Source of the DNA: Phycisphaerales bacterium
GTDB taxonomy: Bacteria > Planctomycetota > Phycisphaerae > SM23-33 > FEN-1343
DNA length: 64,000 nt
Assembly (NCBI GenBank): GCA_003171335.1
Contig: PMYD01000089.1
Location: 34,958-98,957 of the forward strand
Direction: 5' to 3'
Shown here: piece after piece, positions 5,469 to 61,247 of the stretch
Layout: every line of letters starts with the position of its first letter
How positions within the stretch are numbered: position 1 is the stretch's first letter
The notes under the pieces: model-generated
Told to the model about the DNA's origin: nothing
Databases searched by the model: none
Seen by the model: the letters and a program-made list of their open reading frames with translations, nothing else
Made by a program: the position numbers and the translations under genes

Positions 5469-8400
5469 ATGTTCCGATCCGTGACCCTCATGAGCTTGTC
5501 GATGCTGCTGATTGCCCTTACGAACGCCCCGCCGATGGCCGGCGCGGCTATTGTGCTGAATGAGGACTTCGACAGCGGCGGCTTGAACGTGCCCCTGTGC
5601 ATAATCAATACGAGCAACCCCTCCCGGCCCGCCATCACCCTGGCCGGCCGGTATAACTGGCCTGAAGACCCCAGCCAGTGGGCGTGGATGATGTTCTCCA
5701 TGACCGGGGCAAATGCCACCACGCCCCAATTCACCGTGTTGGCAAGCAATATCGGCGGCGGGGTTTATTACCCAGCGAGCTGGACACGCTATGTCTACAG
5801 CTATGACCAGCAGAATTGGTTCTTCTTCGACAACGGCTCGCTGAATTCCGGGTCGCTCATTTACAGCTTCAGCAACAATTCCGCGTTCAATCAGAACACC
5901 GTGTATGTCGCCCTGGGCATTCCTTATCCCTGCTGGCGGACCGCGGCGTTCGTGGCCTCCATCAAGAGCAATCCCTACGTGAAACCCACCGCCAGCGCCG
6001 ATGCGAATTGCATTGTCGGGAACACCCCTGGCACCTACGGGCACGACGCCAACGGCAATCTGTATTACGATGACATGGGCCGAGTGGTCCCGTCCATGCC
6101 CGTTTTCGGCTTCATGATCAACGACGCCAACGCCACCGGCCCCAAGACCCGCGTGGTGATGCAGAGCGGCAACCACGGCGCTGAGCACTGGGCGCATTAT
6201 GCCCTGGAGGGTATGGTCCAGGCGCTGCTGTCGAACGATCCGAACATGGTCGCCCTGCGGCAGAAGGCGATCTTCTTCATCTATCCGGACGTCAATCCGG
6301 AAGGCAATTACTGCGGCTACTGGCGCTCGACGCCCGTCAACCCGGGTAACCTTCCTGGTCTTACCGCGGACCACAACCGGCTCTGGGCCGACCCCAACGG
6401 CCTGGCCGTCGGCTTTGGCGGTCCCACCAGGAATCCGGAAATTGCCATCGTCGAGAACGCCCAGCGCGCTGATGCTGGAAGCGCCGAATACTTCCTCGAT
6501 GTGCATGGCACCTGGGATCCCACTTCAGGTCCGGATTATCTGAATCTCACCTCCTACAATTCCGCCTTGGCGAACAACCTTCGTCTGATTGATCCGGGCG
6601 ATATCGGAGCGGAAACTTACTGGGGCGATCTGCGGTTTGCGATGGGGTACGCCTCGGCGCCGGTTTCTACCGGCGGCCTGGCCGCGGTCACCAGCCTCAC
6701 GCCCGAGATCGGCATGAAGGCCGGAGAGACCGCCGACTATAACCGGCAACTGGGCAAGTACTATATGATGGCCCTGTACGCCACGCTGAACGCCCCGGGT
6801 AACAATTTTCCCCCGACCGTCAGCGCCGGCGCCAACCAGACCATCCACCTGCCGACAAACACGGCAAGCTTGGCCGGCACCGTCAGCGATGATGGCCTGC
6901 CGACCGGCTCGGCCGTCACCGTTACCTGGAGCAAGGTCAGCGGCCCGGGCACGGTCACCTTCGCCAACGCCAGCGCCGCGGCCACCCGGGCGACCTTCTC
7001 GACCTCGGGCACCTACATCCTCCGCCTGACCGCCACGGACACGGCTTTGCCGACCTTCGCGCAAATGCAAGTCACGGTAGCCTCGGGCAATGCACCCCCT
7101 GTAGTCAACGCGGGAGCCAACCAGAGCATTACGCTGCCCATCAACACCGTCAACCTGGTCGGTACGGTCAGCGATGACGGTCTGCCCACCGGGGCGGCCG
7201 TGACGACCACCTGGAGCCGCCTGGGCGGCCCGGGCAGCGTCACCTTCGCCAACCCCAGCGCCTTGAGCACCACAGCCACGTTCTCAACGGCGGGCACCTA
7301 TGTATTGCAACTAGCGGCCAGCGACACGGCGTTGACTGGCACCAGCAACCTGCAGGTTACGGTTATCCCCGCGAATCAGGCTCCCGTAGTTAATGCCGGT
7401 GCGAATCAGGCCATCACGCTGCCGGTTAACACCGTCGCGCTGGCCGGTACGGTCAGCGATGATGGTCTGCCCACCGGGGCGGCTGTGACGACCACATGGA
7501 GCCGCCTCAGCGGTCCGGGCAACGTGACCTTCGCCAACACCAGCGCCTTGAGCACCGCGGCCACGTTCTCAACGGCGGGCACGTACCTGCTGCAACTGGC
7601 GGCCAGCGACACGGCTCTGACTGGCACGAGCAATATTCAGGTTACGGTTGCCCCCGGCGTTAATCAGGCTCCGGTAGTCAGCGCCGGTGCTAACCAGGGC
7701 ATCACGCTGCCGATCAACACCGTTGCGCTGACCGGTACGGTCAGCGATGACGGCCTGCCCTTCGGGGCGGCCGTGACGACCACATGGAGCCGCCTGGGCG
7801 GCCCGGGCAGCGTCACCTTCACCAACGCCAGCGCCTTGAGCACCACAGCCACGTTCTCAACGGCGGGCACGTACATGCTGCAACTGGCGGCCAGCGACAC
7901 GGCTCTGACTGGCACGAGCAACATGCAGGTTACGGTTGCCCCCCCGGGTAATCAGGCTCCCGTGGTCAGTGCCGGTGCGAATCAGACCATCACGCTGCCG
8001 GCCAACACCGTCGCGCTGGCCGGTACGGTCAGCGATGACGGACTGCCCACGCCTCCCGGCGCCGTCACGCTGGCCTGGACCCTGCAAAGCGGGCCCGGAA
8101 CGGTCAGCTTCGCCAATGCGGCCGCCGCCGCCACGACGGCCACGTTTTCGACGGCCGGTACGTACGTGCTGCGCCTGACGGCCAGCGACACGGCGTTGAC
8201 ATCGTATGGCCAGTGCACAGTCGTGGTGCAGCCGCCAGCGTCGCCGTCGCACGCAGAACGCATCCTGATTGATGTCGGTGACCCAACGACCGGCAGTGGC
8301 ACGGGTTGGAACAATTTCACCGTACATCCTCACTGGTCTGGCACTCCGGGCGTGGACCAGGATGGTTACGATGTGTACCTGCAAGAGCTTGCTCCTGGCG

Positions 8401-18972: not shown

Positions 18973-20260
18973 TGGCTCCGGACGCTGCCGCGTAGCCAGT
19001 CTTGAGATTCCTTGCTTATTCCTGCATTCATAAGCAGTTAAGCACCAATCTCGGGTGCCAAAACAGGCCAAAACAGGCCAAAACAGCAATTAACCTTCTT
19101 TAGCACTTATGCTTATGCGCAAGTCCTTATCACACAAAGGCCCATGCAAAAGTGCATAATGCTTAAGATGCATATGCCCCTTTTTGTGCAGCTTGTGCAA
19201 TTTCGCAAACTGCCCCATGCCGACCTCGCATCGTCGCTATTCACTTGTCAAGCCACACGCAGCCCTCAGCGGCCGCCAGCGTCGCGATTAACGCGCCAAC
19301 AAGTATTAAGGGGCAAATTGCGTGCCAGACTGTGAACATTCCAAGACGAATTTTTGCACATTTCACAACCGATGTTCATTACAAGCGTTATGAGATCAAA
19401 ATAACAGAACTAACTTTGCAACTCGCGACTTTGGCCGGCCGTGGCCTGCCAAAATGTGCGCATTTCGTTATCTTGGCGACCCGCACCTGCCATTCTTGGC
19501 ATGCGTTGGGTGCCGTGGCTGCGTTTTTCTGCAGCCACGCGTCAGTGCAAGTTGCTCCCCTTCTCGCGCATCAACGCGGCTCCGCAAGTTCTTCCTGATG
19601 ACGCGTGGCTGCGAAGAGAAGCAGCCACGGCACCCGGCTCGATTAGAGCAGTTAAGCCTTGCATATTTACGTCCGGCTTAAAGAAGGTTATGGAAACGAC
19701 CGAGAATCGCTGGAGCCACGAATTTCCAGGGGTATCCCCTGACCGGCAAGTTCTTTAGCCTCCGCAGGAGGCGTTTGATAGTAGCACGACAGCGCTAGTT
19801 TGATCGTAAGTCCTTATTTCTCCGTCGGACCGTTCGGAGTCGTTGTGCGAGTTTCCTAAGGTTCTTGAACATCGAAAGTGAAACTAGCGCTGTCGTGGTA
19901 GGCCCGGCGCGCTGCCCCCAAGCGAGCGCCAGCGAGCGTGGGGGCGAGCCCGGGGGACAGGGCCCTCCCAGAAAAAGAGCCCCGTCAGGGGCGATTGAAC
20001 GGTGCAACCGGGGACACTGCTGCGGCCGCATCGCTCAATCGCCCTGGCGGGCTCCCAGAAGAGGGGGTCCTTCCTTTCCCCAGGCTCGCCCTTCGACTCG
20101 CTTCGCTCGCTCAGGGCAGCGCCAGGGGCTACTGGTCAGACGCCCTGGCGGGCTCAAGAACCGGAGGAAACTCAGGCCGCCCGCTCCGGCTCGGTCGGCG
20201 CCGAAGCCTTCTTAAGCCGGATGTAAACATGCAAAGCTAAACTGCTATAGCCTAGCCTTC
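18973..20260. other. About 1.3-kb lower-GC structured noncoding region with hairpins and short repeats (candidate ncRNA(s) or decayed element)
   Basis: No credible ORF. 3x tandem GCCAAAACAG (19060-19090). Two near-identical hairpins CGTGGCTGCG-loop-GCAGCCACG (19511-19540, 19603-19632). Long-range inverted motifs TAACCTTCTTTA (19093) / TAAAGAAGGTTA (19679). ACGACAGCGCTAGTT inverted pair (19783/19877). GC-rich nested stem 19915-20115 enclosing a GGGCGATTGA...TCAATCGCCC hairpin. Confidence 0.3.
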
Positions 20261-20782: not shown

Positions 20783-20789
20783 GGAAGAA

Positions 20790-20836
20790 TTTCAAATAGC
20801 CAATTTCCAATTGCAAATTAGCAATTGGCAATGGGT
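20790..20836. repeat. Short AT-rich palindromic element (CCAATT/CAATTG units)
   Basis: CCAATTTCCAATTGCAAATTAGCAATTGGCAATGG between the hisS stop and the downstream gene start. Same periodic style as the elements at 22683, 24848, 29328, 61210. Confidence 0.5.
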
Positions 20837-22616: not shown

Positions 22617-22682
22617 GGGGCTGGATTATAGGCCGCGAGGCTTTCGATTAGAAGGTTAGGTCTCTCGTGAAGGGGAGAGAAA

Positions 22683-22853
22683 AAATCCCAAATCCAAAAT
22701 TCCAAATCCCAAACAAATCCCAAGCACCAAATTCCAAACGGGGATGTGCCTGGGGCACTCCTCGACGCGCTGGGCAGATGCTCCGGCGCGGAGTTTGGAA
22801 TTTGGAATTTGGTGCTTGTTTGGGATTTGGAATTTGGGATTTCCCCGCCGCCT
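22683..22853. repeat. Composite palindromic intergenic element: ~55-bp AT-rich arms built from CCAAAT(T)/GGATTTG heptads around a GC-rich palindromic core
   Basis: Left arm ATCCCAAATCCAAAATTCCAAATCCCAAACAAATCCCAAGCACCAAATTCCAAAC. The right arm is its near reverse complement (GTTTGGAATTTGGAATTTGGTGCTTGTTTGGGATTTGGAATTTGGGATTTCC). The core contains GTGCCTGGGGCAC. It sits in the divergent promoter gap between ykgJ-like and cimA. Confidence 0.8.
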
Positions 22854-23231
22854 CCGCAGTTTGATTACCGGCCAAGGCGAGCCATTGACACCCGAAAAGC
22901 ATTGCCTATAATTTTTCCTGTACCTTCGGCACGAAGCGCAGGAGACCCTGGTGCGGACGCCCCTGACAGGTCAAGCTGCCAGCGAGGCCGGCCCGAGCGG
23001 CCGGACGGGCGATCTCCGCGCCGGCATCATTGCCGCTGTCCCTGTACGCTGCGTGCCTTAGGGCTTGCCTCGTGCATCTGGCATGCCGGCCCTGAGGCGT
23101 GATGGCTTCGGGGCTTTTTTTCTTGCCCCGCGGCGATTTGACGGTCGCCCGGCTCGCTGGAAACGGGCCTGAACGGCTCGGCCGGCCGCGACCGATAAGA
23201 AACCCATGTGCCCAGGAGGCATCGAACAACC

Positions 23232-24847: not shown

Positions 24848-24951
24848 TGGTCAATTGGTCAATTAGTCAATTGGTCAATTCGGGGGGGGGAAGCGCCTGC
24901 CTCTCTACTAATTGACGAATTGACTTGTTGACTAATTGACCGATTGACGAC
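24848..24951. repeat. Palindromic intergenic element of GTCAATT octamer units, ending 2 nt before the valS ATG
   Basis: Left arm GGTCAATTGGTCAATTAGTCAATTGGTCAATT, spacer GGGGGGGGAAGCGCCTGCCTCTCTAC, right arm TAATTGACGAATTGACTTGTTGACTAATTGACCGATTGACGAC. Confidence 0.75.
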
Positions 24952-24952
24952 T

Positions 24953-27900
24953 ATGCCAACACAACTGGACCCTGTCTACGACCCCAAACGTTTCGAGGCC
25001 GCCGCCTACCAGCTCTGGGAGCAGGCAAAGAGTTTCCATGCCGAGCCAGGCGATGGCGAGAAGTACTCGATTGTCATCCCCCCGCCCAACGTAACGGCCC
25101 CGCTGCACCTGGGCCACGCCCTCAACAACACGCTGCAGGATATCCTCATCCGCTGGCAGCGGATGACCGGCAAGGCGACGCTGTGGATGCCCGGCACCGA
25201 CCACGCCGGCATCGCCACGCAGACGGTCGTCGAGAAGCGCATCCTCGCCGAAGAGGGCAGGCGGCGGACCGATTTCGCCCGCGAGGAGTTCGTCGGCCGC
25301 GTGCAGGCGTGGAAGGATGAGTACGAGGCCCGCATCGTGGGGCAACTCAAAGCGATGGGCTGCTCATGCGACTGGGACCGCAGACGTTTCACCATGGACG
25401 AGATGTGTACCCGCGCCGTCCGCGCGGCGTTCTACCAGCTTTTCGCCGATGGGCTGATCTACCGCGGCAAGCGCCTGGTCAACTGGGACCCGGCGACGCA
25501 AACCGTGCTGGCCGATGATGAGGTCGAGCACGAGACGATCAAGGGCTTCTTCTGGTATCTGCGCTATCCGCTGGTCGAGGGTGCGGAGATCGACGGCAAA
25601 CGCGTCGAATGGGTCACCGTCGCCACGACGCGGCCCGAGACCATGCTCGGCGACACGGCCGTGGCGATCAACCCGCGCGACCCGCGCGCCAAAACCCTGG
25701 TGGGTAGGCAGGTGCGCCTGCCCATCGTGGGGCGAATCATCCCCATCATCGCCGATGACTACGTCGTCATGAGCGACCCCACCAGCGAGGATGCCAAGGC
25801 TCGCTTCGCCACCGGCTTTCTCAAGGTGACCCCCGCCCACGACCCCAACGACTGGGAGATCGGCCGGCGGCACAACCTGCCCGTGATCAACGTCATGGCC
25901 CCCGATGGCAGCATCTCGGACAAGCATGGCTGGACCGACGCCACGGAACCGGAGGCCCAAAATCTCCTGGGCATGGATCGTTTCGAGGCCCGCGAGGCCA
26001 TCGTCGAGTACTTCCGCGAGGAGGGCCTGCTCGAAGAGGTGCGCGATTACGAACACGAGGTCGGCCACAGCTACCGCAGCCACGTGCCCATCGAGCCGTA
26101 CCTGTCAGACCAGTGGTATATCGCGGTGAAGAAGCCGCTTGCCCTGAGCGAGCGCAGCGAGTCGAAGGGGATTGTAAATTGTAAATTGCAAATTGCAAAT
26201 TGGGAACGGGAACATGCGGAGTTGGTTGAAAAACAGGGCGACCTGACGGTGCTGAAAGGCACCGACGTGCCGGTTAATTCGCTGGCTGGCATGGCGCTGA
26301 TGCCGCTGCTGGATGGGCGGCTGAAGTTCGTGCCCGACCGCTACGCCAATACCTACCGCGCCTGGCTGGAGAATCTGCGCGATTGGCCCATCAGCCGACA
26401 GCTCTGGTGGGGACATCGAATTCCCGTCTGGAGCATAGAGTTCTCGCAGGCCCATCATGGCAAAGAAGCCGATGGCAAGCGTCCAGAGCATGTGGCCAAC
26501 GAGATGCGTGACTTTTTCGCCAAGCGCAGCGTCACCACGCAAGTTGAACTGCGATGGCCGCCTGTTCTAGTGGAAGGGAAATGGTTTTTCCATGTCAGCG
26601 CGATGACGCCTCGTGCCAGTCGCCTGCTTGAGTTGCTCGGAAAGGTGCTGAAGCATCACCCGCCCGACAAGAGTGAACTCATGCATGAGATGTGGGATGA
26701 GAATAGGGAACTCCGGGAGGAATTTGGCGAGGAATCCCTTGCAGGGGTGACCAAACTGCGCGAGTGTCTAAATGGTTGCCAACAGGACCCCGACGTCCTC
26801 GACACGTGGTTCTCCTCCGGCCTGTGGCCCATCTCCACGATGGGCTGGCCGGAAGAAACGCCGCTGCTGAAGGCGTTCTATCCCACCAGCGTGCTGTGCA
26901 CGGCCCGCGAGATCATCACGCTGTGGGTCAGCCGCATGGTGATGTTCGGGCAGTATTTCCGGGGCGACATTCCGTTTGCCGATGTGTACATCCACGCCAT
27001 GATCCAGGATGGCGAGGGTCGAAAGATGTCCAAGAGCCTGGGCAACGGAATCGACCCCCTGGACATCATCGACAGCCACGGCGCCGACGCCCTGCGGTAC
27101 ACGCTGGCCGCCATGACCACCGAGACGCAGGATGTGCGCATGCCCGTCGAGCACATCAAGCTGCCCGATGGGCGGGAGATGAACAGTTCGCCGAAATTCG
27201 ACATCGGCCGCAACTTCTGCAACAAGCTGTGGAACGCCTCGCGCTTCGCCATGATGAACCTGGAGGCCCTGCCGGCCTTCGGCGACATCGACTGGCGGGG
27301 CAACCTGGCCGACCGCTGGATCCTCAGCCGCCTGCACTCGACCATTCGCGATACGACGGCGGCCCTGGCGGCGTATCGCTTCAATGACCTGGCCTCGACG
27401 CTCTACCGCTTCATGTGGGATGACCTGTGCGACTGGTACCTGGAGATCGCCAAGGGCCGCATCAACGCGGGCGAGACTGCGCCCAAGGCCATCCTCGCCT
27501 ACGTGCTGGATGGCCTGCTGCGGCTGCTGCACCCGATCGCCCCGTTCATCACCGAATCCATCTGGCAGCACCTCAACGAGGTGGCGCCTTCGCGCGGCCC
27601 GGCCGGCAGCGCTGCCGAAAAACTGCTCATCACGGCGGCCTGGCCGACGGCCAATGCCGACTGGATCGATGCGGCGGTCGAAACCCAGTTCGGCCTGCTC
27701 CAGGATCTCATTCGCTCCATTCGCCAGGTCCGCACGACGCACAACGTACCGCCGGCGCGGGAGCTTTCCGTGCTGGTTCGCGCCAGCGGCGAGCCGGCCG
27801 CACTGGTCGGGGCAAACGCCGGGCTTATCCGGTCGCAGGCCCGGCTGGCGGAACTGACGGTTCGCGCCGACGCCCAGCGCCCCGACTCCAAGGCGGCCAC

Positions 27901-28141: not shown

Positions 28142-28261
28142 AGATTGCCAATTTGCCATTCCCGAAAAAAAGTGCCCCATCCGGTGAGTCCCGGACGGGG
28201 CGTCCCTCCCTCCGTCGCCAAGGAAGGATCCTCAGCGCGGGGTCTTACAACTGGGAAAGGA

Positions 28262-29242
28262 TCAGGGAACCGGCGCATCGGCCCCGCGCCGGGTCATCAC
28301 AGGTATCGGTGCGATCGGGTACTCGGGGCGCGTGCGAACCAACAGCGTGACGGGCACCAGAGTCAGCAGCATGGTGTACACCCAGATCGAGACGCCCACC
28401 GTGGCCGTCTCCGGCCCGGCGCGCCACACCGGTACGACCTGGCTGACCATCAGCCAGCCCACCAGGAAACCGAGCAGCGACAGCCAGTACAGCACAAAGG
28501 GAAATACCAGGCCCCGGCCGCCGTGGCGGTAGGCCACCACGAGCATCACCAGCCCCAGCAGCAGCGACAGGCCGTAAAACGCCGGCGAATACACCATCAG
28601 GATCGCGCCGGCCAGGGCCGGGCTGTCGGCGGGAACTGAATCCAGCCCCACCATCTCGGGGAGCGAGTGTGAAAACCCGACGCGGGTATCCAGCGCGCTG
28701 CAAACGCAGGCGTGGGTGCTGTGCACGATGACCTGCCATCCCAACAGCGGCGTGACCGTCAGCGGCCCATTCCCGGAGACCCCCTGGGGCATGTTGTACC
28801 AGGGCAGGAAAATGAAGCCCCCACACACGATCAGGATGAGCGAGCGAAGAATCATCCAGCCCATCGGCGGCGCCGGGTCGGATTGCGCCTTGGCCCAGGC
28901 CTGCGGCCAGCGCGTCACATGCTCGGCGACCTCCGCATCCGGCCCGGTAACCACCACCGGCACCTCGGCGGATGGGTCTTCGGCCGTCGCCGCCAGAGTC
29001 GAGGTCCGCGCGGCGGCCAAGCCGGCTGGCGGCGGCTGACCTTTGGCCTGGCCCTCGGCCAGATGCGCCGTCCCCTCATGCGCCAGCACGACCGGAGGCA
29101 CCTGGGACGGCGGCACCGCCCGGGGCGACCCGACCGGCAGATTCACCAGGGCGCCGCATACCTTGCACGTGAAGACCTGGCCCGCCCGGCTGTCGTCCAG
29201 CCGGTATTCCGATCCGCAGTGGCATTTGACCTCGATTGCCAT
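28262..29242 (-). CDS. Membrane protein with N-terminal cytoplasmic zinc-ribbon (CxC...CxxC), Pro-rich linker and polytopic C-terminal domain
   Basis: MAIEVKCHCGSEYRLDDSRAGQVFTCKVCGALV at the N-terminus, then a P-rich spacer and 5-6 predicted TM helices. RBS GGAG. Confidence 0.55.
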   Translation of the reverse strand: MAIEVKCHCGSEYRLDDSRAGQVFTCKVCGALVNLPVGSPRAVPPSQVPPVVLAHEGTAHLAEGQAKGQPPPAGLAAARTSTLAATAEDPSAEVPVVVTGPDAEVAEHVTRWPQAWAKAQSDPAPPMGWMILRSLILIVCGGFIFLPWYNMPQGVSGNGPLTVTPLLGWQVIVHSTHACVCSALDTRVGFSHSLPEMVGLDSVPADSPALAGAILMVYSPAFYGLSLLLGLVMLVVAYRHGGRGLVFPFVLYWLSLLGFLVGWLMVSQVVPVWRAGPETATVGVSIWVYTMLLTLVPVTLLVRTRPEYPIAPIPVMTRRGADAPVP

Positions 29243-29327
29243 CGCTATGCTCCATGCGGCTGCTGCGCAAGAAAACGGTACGGAAAGCTCATCGGGTTAT
29301 TACGCGGGAGACTTTTGCAGTGTCTCA

Positions 29328-29487
29328 GGCCAAAAATCCCAAATCCCAAATCCCAAACAAATCCCAAGCTCCAAATCCCAAAGGGGAACAAGAGGCCCGC
29401 TGGACAGCAGCGCGAGTTCCCGTACGGGGTTTGGAGCTTGGGATTTGGAGCTTGTTTGGGATTTGGAACTTGGAATTTGGGATTTGC
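29328..29487. repeat. Composite palindromic intergenic element of the same family as 22683-22853
   Basis: AATCCCAAATCCCAAATCCCAAACAAATCCCAAGCTCCAAATCCCAAAGGGG ... GC-rich core ... GGGTTTGGAGCTTGGGATTTGGAGCTTGTTTGGGATTTGGAACTTGGAATTTGGGATTTG. The shared core is CCCAAACAAATCCCAAGC. Confidence 0.8.
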
Positions 29488-29560
29488 CGTCCCAAAAGCA
29501 GCGGCAGGACGACCTGAAGCCATCCTGCCGCCGCCAAAAAGACACTCGACCCAGAAAAAG

Positions 29561-31144
29561 CTACGGCTGCGAGATTCCCTGGCTCTTGCCATTCTGGATA
29601 GACAGCGCCCGGTTCACCGCTGCCAGATACGCCCTGCCGGAGGCCTCGACGATATCGGTGGACAGGCCTCGGGCGCGGATCTTCCGGCCGCCCAGGTCCA
29701 CCTCGACGGTCACCTCGCCCTGGGCCTCCTTGCCGCCGGTGACGGCCCGGAGCTGGTAGTCGGTCAGCTTCAGTTCCACGCCCGTAATTCGGCCAATGGC
29801 GGAATAGATCGCATCCACCGGCCCATCGCCCGTGGCGGCGTCGGTGAATTGCTGTCCCTGTTTATCCAGGGTCACCGTGGCGGTCGGCATGGAATTCGTG
29901 CCGGCCATGGTCTGCAGCGCCACCAGCTTCCACGTCTCGACGATGCGCTCGGTCTGCGCCTCCAGGATCGACTCGATGTCCTCGTCGTACACGTTCTTCT
30001 TCTTGTCCGCCAGGCGGATGAACAGGTCGAAGGCGGCGTCGAGCTGCGCATCGCTGATTTTGTAGCCCAGCGCCTCCACGCGGTCGCGGAAGGCGTGGCG
30101 CCCCGAATGCTTGCCCAGCACCAGCTTGGAAGCGGGAATGCCCACATCCTCGGGCCGCATGATCTCGTACGTCTCGCGATTGGCCAATACCCCGTGCTGG
30201 TGAATGCCGGCCTCGTGGGCGAAGGCGTTCTCGCCGACGACCGCCTTGTTGCGCTGCACGTTGATGCCCGTGATGGACGAAAACAGCCGGCTGGTCGGGT
30301 AGATTCGCTGGGTCACGATGTTCGTTTCGGCGCCGAAGATATCCCGGCGCGTCTTGAGCGCCATGACCACCTCTTCCAGCGAGGCGTTGCCGGCCCGCTC
30401 GCCGATGCCGTTGATGGTGCATTCCACCTGCCGGGCGCCCGCGCGCACGGCGGCCAGGCTGTTGGCCACGGCCATGCCCAGGTCGTTGTGGCAGTGCACG
30501 CTGATGACCGTGCGCTCGATGCCCTTGACGTGCTCGCGCAGATAGCGGATCAGGTTGCCGAACTCATAGGGCACGGCGTAGCCCACGGTGTCGGGAATGT
30601 TCAGCGTGGTGGCGCCGGCCTCGATCACCGCCGAGAGCACCTGGGCCAGAAAATCCCACTCCGTGCGCGAGGCATCCTCGGGGCTGAACTCCACATCGTC
30701 GGTAAACGTCTTGGCCAGCTTGATCGCCTCGACGCTCATGGTGACGATCTGGTCCTTCGCCTTGCGCAGCTTGAACTTGCGATGCACCTCGCTGGTGGCG
30801 CAAAAAACGTGGATGCGCTTGCGGCCGGCCGGCGCCAGCGCCTCGGCCGCGCGCAGGATATCCTTCTCCAGGCTGCGGGCCAGGCCGCAGATGATGCGGC
30901 CGGTGATTTGCTCGGCCACGGCCTTGACGGCCTCGAAATCGCCGGGCGAGGCGATGGGAAAACCCGCCTCGATCACATCCACGTTCAGCGCTGTCAGGGC
31001 GCGGGCCATCTGGAGCTTCTCCTCGATATTCATCGAGGCGCCGGGGCACTGCTCGCCGTCCCGAAGCGTGGTATCGAAAATGATGATCTTGCCGGCCGGC
31101 TGGTCGGCCGGGGTTTCCGTTACGTTTTCTTGCTTCTCTGGCAT
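29561..31144 (-). CDS. leuA: 2-isopropylmalate synthase
   Basis: [44 protein letters not shown] and a LeuA dimerisation/regulatory C-terminus. The start MPEKQENV is at about 31143-31144. Confidence 0.85.
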
Positions 31145-31551
31145 GGCTGTTCTTCCTTCTGGGCCGGTCGCCCGCAGACGCCGGCGGTGGTTCCTTAGAG
31201 AATCTGTCGCACGCGTTTCGCACCACCACTTGATAGTCGAAACGGCCGAACCGGCCATTGGCGATCAGTCTTTTCAGTCATCATCATTTCCTTGCCACGA
31301 TGAAGGCATAAAAAAACCCGCGACATTGCAAGGTCGCGGGGCAAGTTCGTCAAGTCTGGCGTAATTCGATCAGCCCGAGCGACCCACTAGCACAGCAATA
31401 GCCCCAGTCGTAGGGCGAGGGTCAAAATATTGCTGCCGCAGGTCATCGGGTGCTCGCTTTTTCGGACTTCTATAGAGATAGTATCGTCCCGTTTGGCGAA
31501 AGCAAGAAGAAAAAGCAGGCTGCAAACCTTGGGGCAGACCGGAGCCGCACT

Positions 31552-31865: not shown

Positions 31866-32300
31866 CGCGACTCCGACATTGTCGCAGTCAACTGCGGAAT
31901 TTCCGCAGTTGACCCCCGGCGCGACTCCATAATTTTTGGAGTCACCTCCTGATTCACGTCCGGAAATTCCGGACGTGAGTACGCCTCTGGCCGGGGAGCC
32001 GGGGCGCGACTCCGAGATTTTCAGAGTCGATCTTTCATTCAGTTCATTCCCGGAATGAACTGAGGACTGCCAGGAAGCCCCCAGGGACACAGCTCAACTC
32101 CGAAATTTTCGGAGTTGACTGGAGAAATTCTCCAGTTGGAGCTTGGCGCGACTCCGACTTTGTCGGAGTCAACTGCGGAAATTCCGCAGTTGTGCCCGGC
32201 GCGACTCCATAATTTATGGAGTCACGTCCGGAAATTCCGGACGTGAGTATCCCTTCTGGGTCCGACTTTGTCGGAGTCAACTGCGGAAATTCCGCAGTTG
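31866..32300. repeat. Array of about 12 short perfect palindromes (9-11-bp arms centred on AATT/AAATTT), organised as about 3 copies of a ~130-bp higher-order unit
   Basis: Examples: GACTCCGACATTGTCGCAGTC, CAACTGCGGAATTTCCGCAGTTG, GACTCCATAATTTTTGGAGTC, ACGTCCGGAAATTCCGGACGT, GTTCATTCCCGGGAATGAAC, CAACTCCGAAATTTTCGGAGTTG, ACTGGAGAAATTCTCCAGT, GACTCCGACTTTGTCGGAGTC. The higher-order unit recurs at about 31868-31995 and 32148-32270, with a partial third copy at 32265-32300. Confidence 0.8.
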
Positions 32301-32451
32301 AAGCCAGCGGTTGGAGTCAATGCAAGAAAATGGGGCCGTTAAGTGTTACACTCGTTATCATTTTCGGATGACTGTAACACTTACAATGCCAGCCTATGCT
32401 CAATTCCACCCTATGCGCCAATCCGAAGGAGCATCAAACTGACAGTAGCCA

Positions 32452-51146: not shown

Positions 51147-51506
51147 ATGAGCGTTGACCGCACACTGCATATTCGTTCGGGCGGAACCCAGAAGCGCAAC
51201 GTCCTGTCGCGGGCGGAGCGCATCGCCATGCTGGCCGAAGGCGGCGAGGTGGACCTGGATGCCCTCAATCCGCTGGGACTGACCAAGACCAAGGTCCGTG
51301 TCTCCAAGGCCGGCACCAAGAGCAAGAAGGAAGAGAAGCCTGCGGAAGGCGCCGAAGGCGTGCCCGCGGCCGAAGGCGCCGCCCCCGCCGCCGGCAAGGA
51401 AGGGGCTGCGGCTGGCGCCGCCAAGCCCGCCGCCAAGCCCGCCGGCAAGGCCGAAGGCAAGCCCGGCAAGGGCGAAGCCAAGGCCGAGGGGAAGGGAAAG
51501 AAGTAG
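51147..51506 (+). CDS. Small basic protein with Lys/Ala/Gly-rich histone-H1-like C-terminal tail, hypothetical
   Basis: Strong RBS AAGGAG. N-terminal ~55-aa globular part, then KSKKEEKPAEGAEG...AAKPAAKPAGKAEGKPGKGEAKAEGKGKK. Confidence 0.5.
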   Translation: MSVDRTLHIRSGGTQKRNVLSRAERIAMLAEGGEVDLDALNPLGLTKTKVRVSKAGTKSKKEEKPAEGAEGVPAAEGAAPAAGKEGAAAGAAKPAAKPAGKAEGKPGKGEAKAEGKGKK

Positions 51507-51697
51507 GGCATTTGAGACCGTCCGCTCCAAACCGGCGGGCCGTCCCTTGAAGCGTTAATAGGTTAACTGGTTAATCGGTTAGCTGGCCATGCCGGCCAGG
51601 CCTAATCAGTTAATAGATGCATTTAGTGAGTCCTCCGCAAGCGGGGACGCGTTGCCTATTGTCCGATTAACCTATTACCTGCGTCGGAGCCATTTCA

Positions 51698-61177: not shown

Positions 61178-61209
61178 GGTTTGATCGTCGCCTGTGCCCC
61201 AGAAACAGG

Positions 61210-61247
61210 CAAATTCCAAATTCCAAGATTTGGAATTTGGAATTTCT
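61210..61247. repeat. Compact palindrome of AAATTCC/GGAATTT units in a divergent promoter gap
   Basis: CAAATTCCAAATTCCAAGATTTGGAATTTGGAATTTC. Same motif style as the 22683 and 29328 elements. Confidence 0.6.

Follow-up and report, generated by a model that had tools for sequence, protein, structure and literature searches.

A stretch of 64 kb from the genome of a Phycisphaerales bacterium (contig PMYD01000089.1; this whole stretch is called the window below) carries eight A/T-rich repeat elements, here named A to H, which are built of head-to-tail units of 7 or 8 nt and are dispersed over mostly non-coding loci, one of them (D) lying in frame within the valyl-tRNA synthetase (ValRS) gene valS. 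With such units, such a distribution and several unit types within 64 kb, they fall into a class that is widespread in bacteria, the heptanucleotide short tandem repeat elements (STRR, or long-unit simple sequence repeats), of which they are a Planctomycetota example: a kind of repeat that is known but poorly understood. The explanation that the data support best is that their working is most likely mutational and not regulatory. In this reading, to which we give a probability of roughly 0.55, the elements are repeat DNA kept by slippage and template switching, occasionally copied between loci and retained only where it is harmless. The taxonomic frame is given by the ValRS of the window, whose nearest proteins are labelled Planctomycetota or Phycisphaerae.

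An initial annotation, made from the sequence alone, had described five intergenic sites as one family of a single architecture. All five are present at the positions it gave and far exceed chance expectation, but D, E and G had been missed, and the eight elements are of at least four unit types with no single sequence in common. Units of the CCAAATY type make up B, F, and H, those of the ATTGCNA type A, D, and E, while C consists of GGTCAATT units and G of GGTTAAYN units. The G+C content of the units is 29-43%, versus 63.8% for the window as a whole, which also corrects the earlier figure of about 68% for the genome. Tandem Repeats Finder reports 2.4-8.4 copies per array, with a period of 7 in A (20788-20832), B (22683-22738 and 22790-22842), D, F (29334-29382 and 29426-29486), and H (61210-61245), and a period of 8 in C (24848-24880 and 24910-24950) and G. 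Arrays on opposite strands are paired in B, C, F, G, and H, with spacers of 3 to about 53 nt, and B (22683-22842), C (24848-24950), and F (29331-29487) are inverted doublets with arms of 33-57 nt. The two arms of 35-60 bp attributed to every site are thus found in B and F and roughly in C (33-41 nt), but not in A, where a tract of 45 nt contains a palindrome of 8 bp, nor in H, whose arms measure 17-18 nt. The arms consist of tandem 7-8-mers, either non-palindromic or palindromic at the level of the unit, and their cores differ among A, C, D, G, and the group B/F/H. A typical array is of about 2.5 to 8 tandem units and close to 32 nt long, and doublets can fold into hairpins of 17-55 bp around an arbitrary spacer.

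The behavior of these elements over time can be read from relatives. The closest ValRS (P0001, about 80-81% identical to that of the window) is encoded on a syntenic contig, L002, in which four-fold degenerate sites are 69% identical to those of the window. The same four gaps hold arrays in both, and in two of the gaps the unit is not the same. In L002, a small element of TTAACCAA-type units lies upstream of the leuA promoter; the leuA-valS gap there holds a doublet of 8-nt units that reads GGTTAAYC on both arms, versus GGTCAATT in the window, around a spacer of about 110 nt; valS is followed by a complete (ATTTCAA)n hairpin doublet, versus the 19-nt remnant E in the window; and the ortholog of F (L002 7276-7440) retains CCAAATY units within an alignment that is 79% identical across the whole gap. 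The distance from array to leuA promoter also differs between the two. In L003, a more distant relative (67%), no arrays were found in these gaps, which contain G+C-rich palindromes instead.

The array within valS shows the same replacement of units inside a coding sequence. Element D (26171-26203, + strand; 33 nt) is an in-frame (ATTGTAA/ATTGCAA)x4.6 array that codes for IVNCKLQIANW; L002 carries (ATTGCAA)x4 at exactly this position, and the window has a further 33-nt insert alongside, immediately upstream of D. In a survey of 83 valS loci, most encode here a 17-aa loop, KKPIEHLAEKFGEGLIE, by means of CCGATTGAGCATTTGGC, which is already a weak 7-nt proto-repeat. The arrays stand in this loop, after DQWYIAVKK, and belong to a subclade whose loop is longer: the window and L002 have (ATTGCAA)n, L186 and L139 (ATTGCGG)n, L153, L185, L141, and L170 (ATTGACG/ATTGYCG)n, L140 (ATTGACA)n, and L188 (ATCTCAA)n. 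ATTG is invariant across the ATTG-type arrays, and the other three positions are uniform within each array and depend on the lineage. Since uniformity within arrays together with difference between lineages is a signature of concerted evolution, the valS loop arrays appear, from their sequences, to evolve in concert. At other shared valS sites, L180 and L190 carry CAATCCG and CAATCGG, respectively, and L157 and L160 unrelated units; L180 in addition has an inverted 8-mer doublet within the gene. Recent gains are also visible: a 31-nt (TCTGTCT)x4.9 array in L128 corresponds to a single GTCTT in L129 and L157 (94-96% identical), and (AAAATCA)x3.9 in the valS of L157 corresponds to a non-repeat sequence of similar length, GGAAATTGATGGTAAAAGACTTGAA, in L128 and L129. 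New arrays were therefore built from sequence already on site. Between L143 and L155 (88% identical), arrays are conserved.

Two other insertions in ValRS came to light in this survey. The enzyme of many Phycisphaerae-like relatives (L183, L185-L188, L192, L194, L195, L197, L199, L201, and L202) contains an in-frame domain of about 200 aa that resembles the Y1 transposases of the IS200/RAYT type (RAYT, tyrosine transposase associated with repetitive extragenic palindromes, REPs), scoring above the Pfam cutoff for PF01797 (P0030 residues 335-394, P0061 residues 1010-1072) and keeping the NHVH, WQ, and YVLGNP motifs. It occurs at two insertion sites, the common one directly before the conserved YVTVATTRPE, where L157 and L160 carry heptamer arrays. 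Its copies are 54-100% identical and hence inherited and kept open; the valS of the window is without it, and no report of such a domain in ValRS was found in the literature searched. In L163, L175, L202, and L199, a G+C-rich REP-like palindrome (CACGGGCTTCCAGCCCGTG) lies in frame in the loop after DQWYIAVKK and gives peptides of the WHGLPAREDTAKMAVP type, so that this loop accepts several kinds of small repeat DNA.

Heptamer arrays are in excess well beyond these loci. In 1.17 Mb of sequence from relatives, a sample chosen through valS only, there are 38 arrays of period 7 with 3.5 copies or more, versus nine of period 6 and five of period 8; their units are many, and none is CCAAATY. A scan for (CCAAATY)x2.7 with one genome per species yielded at least 120 stretches in many phyla. 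Among the matches listed, to which all counts of CCAAATY elements and of their surroundings given here and below refer, there are 133 elements: 85 solo arrays, 31 doublets in which, as in the window, the CCAAAT arm comes first, and 10 in the opposite order. The same loci contain 168 further arrays of period 7, with about 120 different units, versus 43 of period 6 and 61 of period 8. Controls of the same composition led to the rejection of CCAAATY as a special pan-bacterial motif: in viral contigs it has 37 matches, versus 49, 79, and at least 120 for the control heptamers. Period 7 is special, then, and the sequence of the unit is not. Nor do the units have a marked composition elsewhere, their A/T bias in other genomes being barely present (mean -0.035 relative to the host).

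Copies in coding sequence are likewise general. CCAAATY arrays lie in frame in long open reading frames (ORFs) 23 times in the sense and four times in the antisense orientation, a bias that fits a random origin followed by selective filtering. Translated, they give PN(S/P)K(F/S)QI heptapeptide repeats, and hosts of (CCAAATY)3-4 that were confirmed with Pfam are MetH, a P-type ATPase, Mfd, SecA, a class I tRNA synthetase, and a GT4 glycosyltransferase (loci L120, L091, L061, L067, L110, and L094, from Bacteroidota, Patescibacteria, and Acidobacteriota). Units that are stop-free in all six frames are not enriched (50 of 130, versus 54-61 expected). Small repeats tolerated in frame in conserved genes are also known from the Rickettsia palindromic elements, which are of 100-150 bp and form one sequence family, and are not 33-nt heptamer arrays.

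Taken together, the proposed course of events would be as follows. A local seed of 7-8 nt would be amplified by slipped-strand or template-switch copying, and continued slippage would keep the units of an array alike, i.e., in concerted evolution, while template switching within the hairpin would keep the arms of a doublet complementary. From time to time, copying or conversion would also carry arrays from one locus of a genome to another. Selection would act as a filter on location, leaving them in the spaces between transcription units or, within genes, as in-frame inserts in protein surface loops that tolerate them, such as that of ValRS, presumably with no adaptive role. Where elements are transcribed, as A, C, and probably F would be, long RNA hairpins would form, and any effect on mRNA processing or translation would be a by-product. 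The record of such objects in the literature, where they have no known function, was counted in favor of this reading (PMC2700814, PMC4692102, PMC4679880).

The hairpins themselves are one ground for a role in RNA. A repeat finder gives inverted arms of 50 nt with 86% complementarity and 53 nt between them for B, of 49 nt for F, and of 33 nt with 88% complementarity and 33 nt between them for C. Folded as single-stranded RNA and compared with dinucleotide shuffles, B reaches -92.3 kcal/mol versus -57.7 ± 4.4 (z -7.9), F -90 kcal/mol (z -8.2), and C -57 kcal/mol (z -9.1); H is a small hairpin (z -4.5), and the folds of A (z -2 to -3) and G (z -1.9) are weak. Such hairpins might be selected in polycistronic or leader transcripts to control processing, stability, termination or translation, for instance by masking the valS start. 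The great stability of the larger folds (z -8 to -9) is what this explanation calls for, as are the position of A, C, and F between co-directional genes, with C adjoining the valS ATG, and the filling of the same gaps in L002, where the arms have stayed complementary through a change of unit; for TAACTGA arrays 5' of start codons, MacGregor proposed a translational role (PMC4679880). We nevertheless consider it unlikely. B and H are located upstream of both flanking promoters and are probably untranscribed, the A/U-rich stems are not followed by T-runs as in intrinsic terminators, and the terminators recognized by a consensus scan lie elsewhere (28174-28201, 23088-23115, and 31317-31340). In co-directional gaps, solo CCAAATY arrays are not significantly biased toward the sense orientation (14 versus 8), similar arrays lie inside coding regions, and L003 has none in the gaps in question. 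At gathering score, the only Rfam 15 match in the window is a tRNA-Gln, and a relaxed search gave no bacterial family, only sub-threshold matches of C and F to eukaryotic miRNA precursors.

A function of the DNA itself had also been suggested, in the form of curvature, promoter UP elements or landing pads for nucleoid proteins. Curved DNA has A-tracts phased by about 10-11 bp, and UP elements are A/T-rich DNA at about -40 to -60. A phasing of 7-8 bp should be out of register with the helical repeat of 10.5 bp; each 7-bp unit turns by 240 degrees, three units would therefore cancel, and no net curvature is expected. As to UP elements, the arm of B nearest to the promoter at 22885-22912 lies at about -77 to -129 relative to the expected start, beyond the UP range, and the occurrence of arrays of this kind within coding sequence is a further point against both roles. 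Neither of them finds support. Binding arrays read by a nucleoid-associated or ribbon-helix-helix-type protein, or A/T-rich sites that melt in response to supercoiling at the borders of transcription units, are a broader version of the idea. Tandem direct or inverted units of 7-8 bp are indeed read by the omega repressor of pSM19035 (7-bp heptads) and by MetJ (8-bp metboxes), and the units of the window are all A/T-rich and stand at unit borders, two of them in divergent gaps. The equivalent sites of Geobacter were even annotated by their authors as putative binding sites of a global regulator (PMC2700814). However, with at least four unit types in 64 kb and a unit that differs between orthologous sites, the regulator would have to change as well, which makes a landing pad unlikely; units elsewhere are scarcely A/T-biased and can be G+C-rich, such as GGGACCG in Geobacter; arrays occur in coding sequence; the distance to the one clear promoter is not kept between the window and L002; and the phasing would give no net curvature. 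This explanation is accordingly the least probable of those weighed here.

Copying between loci is required by the relation of B to F. Allowing for one mismatch at most, CCAAATYCCAAAT occurs 17 times in the window, exclusively in B, F, and H, versus 0.10 times expected from shuffles, none of 100 of which reaches 17. As the initial annotation had noticed, B and F have a near-identical arm core: an exact 24-mer, CCAAATCCCAAACAAATCCCAAGC, is common to both, as is an asymmetry of the arms, with CAAACAAATCCCAAGC on the left and CAAACAAGC on the right. A G+C-rich palindromic core had been seen as part of the same architecture; the spacers are G+C-rich with internal hairpins, but those of B and F are mutually unrelated, without similarity in direct or reverse-complement comparison (z 0.4-1.3), whereas the spacer of F and that of its ortholog are weakly similar (z about 2). 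Shared arms around unrelated spacers thus imply that sequence was copied between loci by some route. A phylogenetic ordering of the six CCAAATY arms was dropped, all pairs being 77-98% identical and of low complexity, so that the tree is unresolvable; with it went the claim that B is nearer to F than F is to its ortholog, and only the 24-mer and the arm asymmetry remain.

One such route would be transposition. As non-autonomous mobile DNA comparable to miniature transposable elements with inverted repeats (MITEs) or to REPINs (REP doublets forming hairpins), the doublets would replicate by being excised as single-stranded hairpins and re-inserted by a transposase encoded elsewhere, such as a RAYT. 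The build of two inverted arms around a poorly conserved spacer is that of REPINs (PMC3116915), there are several copies per genome, with both arm variants common to B and F, arrays are gained between close genomes, and 41 of the 133 CCAAATY elements are doublets with a 31:10 arm order. Relatives encode RAYT-like Y1 domains, and in Geobacter metallireducens insertion sequences (IS) stand at fixed distances from the paired sites. The details nonetheless render this route improbable. The arms are tandem repeats and not palindromic REPs with a conserved 16-mer; the window elements have neither conserved termini nor GTAG/CGTC tags; and no target-site duplication was found at the flanks of B (GAGAAAAA / CCCCGCC), F (GGCCAAAA / GCCGTCC), C or H. 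Spacers are unrelated, copies are not homologous over their full length, and no IS with such ends was seen; none of the eight elements adjoins an IS or transposase, and tblastn with two RAYT-like Y1 domains gave no match in the 64-kb window. Solo arrays outnumber doublets (85 versus 41), the unit varies by site, and new arrays arise from local sequence. Of the proposed MITE/REP-like family, what holds is thus the presence of dispersed, hairpin-forming, REP-like intergenic repeats, and a MITE nature is without support.

Several observations weigh against the explanation by slippage and template switching. The 24-mer and the arm asymmetry of B and F persist despite unrelated spacers. All four comparable gaps are filled in the window and in L002, and complementarity has outlasted the change of unit, which selection on hairpins would also yield. 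The lengths of arrays are not geometrically distributed but peak at 24-25 and 30-33 nt, and the 31:10 order of arms is unaccounted for. The irregular words CCAAGCWCCAAA and CCAAACAAAT recur in 8 and 19 of 120 loci, respectively, in metagenome-assembled genomes (MAGs) assigned to Bacteroidota, Acidobacteriota, Omnitrophota, and Planctomycetota, for which slippage alone is insufficient, although errors of MAG binning are possible. Contigs with such words include L014 and L104 (labelled Bacteroidales), L096 (Vicinamibacterales), and L027 (Omnitrophota). Finally, a search for contigs of the same species returned only relatives with at most 67% ValRS identity, so slippage is deduced and not seen in progress.

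These points would find a place in a bolder explanation, in which heptamer arrays of about 32 nt are very small self-copying DNA of a kind of its own, with an as yet unrecognized, sequence-independent writing mechanism at work across bacterial phyla. Such a mechanism would take its seeds from local 7-mers, would copy between loci and between hairpin arms, and would write in-frame heptapeptide repeats (PNPKSQI, IADCGLR, and the like) into essential genes, among them valS, metH, secA, and mfd, where long concerted evolution would follow; the quantized length, the 31:10 arm order, and the irregular words across phyla would be its signatures. We regard this explanation as doubtful. Two contigs of a MAG labelled Bacteroidales (42-48% G+C; L104 at about 1030-1100 and L014 at about 400-560) carry CCCAAACAGATTCCAAGCACCAAGCACCAAATTCCAAAC, near-identical to CCCAAACAAATCCCAAGCACCAAATTCCAAAC of element B (window 22706-22739); horizontal transfer, convergence or mis-binning could each be the cause.

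The window elements had been taken for a lineage-specific family. Similarly built arrays are, however, present in relatives and in many phyla, and were catalogued earlier in G. metallireducens (Aklujkar et al., 2009, PMC2700814). That genome, of another phylum, has a GGGACCG x4 element in 49 copies, within and between genes, and families of three to five tandem units of 7-9 nt, mostly in opposite-strand pairs at variable distance and in dozens of copies, as in the paired sites of the window; its units (GTTGCTYN, TCTCCGTS, MTYCTGA, GGGACCG) are G+C-rich or mixed, the IS reported there at a fixed distance are not seen beside the eight elements, and the function of the sites is equally unestablished (PMC2700814). 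According to the papers that cite Mrazek (2007), among the simple repeats of bacteria that have long units, heptamers are the most abundant (PMC4679880, PMC4692102). As summarized in the same two papers, the STRR of cyanobacteria (Mazel, 1990) are tandem heptanucleotides, mostly intergenic and of several unit types per genome, as are those studied here, and the genome scan matched cyanobacterial loci too; in these summaries STRR are described as direct arrays, and inverted-doublet hairpins, in-frame copies, and Planctomycetota fall outside that description.

The GGGAATC arrays of Xanthomonas and GGGGAYT arrays of Nostoc are genome-wide heptamer arrays with a non-coding excess, in which some four units are preferred (Rehm et al., 2015, PMC4692102); to this preference the length mode of 30-33 nt corresponds here. 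They are G-rich and have been explained by G-quadruplexes (PMC4692102), whereas most units here (ATTGCAA, GGTCAATT, and GGTTAAYN) cannot form quadruplexes and show the same length preference. The TAACTGA repeats of marine Beggiatoaceae (MacGregor, 2015, PMC4679880) are direct repeats of 2-6 copies, often just 5' of start codons, that are also present in Cyanobacteria and Bacteroidetes and occasionally within ORFs; one unit dominates there, in a strongly forward orientation and with a single inverted set in 170 (PMC4679880), whereas the kind described here has several units and no significant orientation bias. With REPINs (Bertels and Rainey, 2011, PMC3116915), the doublets have in common the inverted arrangement, a less conserved spacer, a hairpin in single-stranded DNA or RNA, and a dispersed, extragenic location. 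REPs are imperfect palindromes with an invariant 16-mer and a link to RAYTs (PMC3116915), whereas the arms in the window are non-palindromic tandem repeats of varying units. A literature search with the CCAAATY repeat sequence found no bacterial paper. Readings as CsrA GGA motifs, G-quadruplexes or Chi-like sites were dropped, because they fit only CCAAATY/GGGATTT units and not the other unit types of the window.

Why arrays of about four to five heptanucleotide units build up in bacteria is a question that has stood since STRR were described in 1990 and their excess was quantified in 2007. To it, the present analysis adds Planctomycetota arrays that form long hairpin doublets, a preference for about 32 nt that is not tied to G-quadruplex potential, and the case of valS, an essential gene with an in-frame array whose position has stayed the same throughout deep lineages and whose unit has been exchanged, a case that offers a clean system for measuring concerted evolution. 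In practice, the spurious ORFs and long inverted repeats to which these elements give rise can lead gene callers, assemblers, and screens for non-coding RNA astray in high-G+C metagenomes.

Within the window, the elements occupy varied positions. Element A (20788-20832; 45 nt) consists of ATTGCAA/ATTAGCA/ATTGGCA-type heptamers (period 7, 5.1 copies) around a short central palindrome of 8 bp, and fills the 56-nt gap from the hisS stop (20839, - strand) to the start of a gene of 173 aa (20782, - strand). Element B lies between leuA and a divergent gene for a CxxCxxCC-domain protein (start 22616, - strand). Its left arm (22683-22739) has eight CCAAATY-type units, with CCAAACAAAT and CCAAGCACC as irregular words among them; the spacer (22740-22789) is G+C-rich with small hairpins of its own (GTGCCtggGGCAC); and the right arm (22790-22846) is the left one inverted, minus one unit. 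A perfect sigma-70-type promoter, TTGACA-N16-TATAAT, is located 42 nt downstream of B, at 22885-22912. Element C (24848-24950) is an inverted doublet of 8-nt units, TGGTCAAT x4.1 followed by AATTGACN x5.1 after a G+C-rich spacer of 33 nt, in the gap from the leuA stop (24830) to the valS ATG (24953). Its end, at 24950, leaves 2 nt before that ATG, just as had been noted. Element E (28142-28163), a solo array of 19 nt (ATTGCCA ATTTGCC ATT), stands immediately 3' of the valS stop, before the terminator of a convergent gene. Element F (29331-29487), with CCAAATY arms at 29334-29382 and 29426-29487 and a G+C-rich spacer of 43 nt, is flanked by a conserved terminator-like hairpin that follows leuA2 and by the start of a gene of 326 aa (- strand).

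The two remaining elements lie further along. Element G (51554-51680) is compound, with a GGTTAAYN left arm (51554-51586), inverted pieces at 51602-51616 and 51655-51680, and inner G+C-rich hairpins; it is downstream of a gene whose product has a Lys/Ala/Pro-rich tail. Element H (61209-61246) is a minimal doublet, (CAAATTC)x2.4 facing (ATTTGGA)x2.6 across a 3-nt loop, in a divergent gap of 112 nt. Placement in divergent promoter gaps or directly before start codons, which had been proposed for the whole family, therefore applies to B and H (divergent) and to C (start), but A and F lie otherwise between co-directional genes, as does C, E lies between convergent genes, and D is coding. With contexts so mixed, the elements have no position in common relative to promoters, terminators or start codons. 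The further copies on whose existence the family idea depended are there, three more in the window and others in relatives.

The surroundings of the elements gave several minor observations. The perfect leuA promoter is followed by a leader of about 300 nt that ends in a conserved terminator-like hairpin with a T-run (23088-23115), in the window (22885-23115) as well as in L002 (677-920) and L003 (2925-3180), which suggests control by attenuation; the leader has no match to an Rfam family. As the repeat elements are stop-free in several frames, ORFs of 80-115 aa that are spurious, but that gene-calling software could report, extend across B (22648-22902, - strand) and F (29236-29517, + strand, and 29245-29592, - strand). 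Upstream of G, which begins 48 nt after it, an ORF of 119 aa (51147-51506) has a Lys/Ala/Pro-rich tail made of 12-24-nt repeats (51416-51486), recalling histone-H1-like nucleoid proteins. Other repeats of the window are of different kinds. A cluster at 31869-32301 contains differing perfect palindromes of 21-25 nt with AAATT centers (GACTCCGACATTGTCGGAGTC, CAACTGCGGAAATTCCGCAGTTG, and TCACGTCCGGAAATTCCGGACGTGA), with a period of about 53 nt that recurs 2-3 times, and is a repeat family separate from the heptamer arrays. A G+C-rich inverted repeat at 19508-19635 has 37-nt arms (GGGTGCCGTGGCTGC...) that are 86% complementary and 54 nt apart, and a similar REP-like palindrome is found in L002 (14964-15090). 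Lastly, a 285-nt unit is repeated 4.3 times at 6819-8050 with 81% matches, and is probably a coding repeat of tandem domains.

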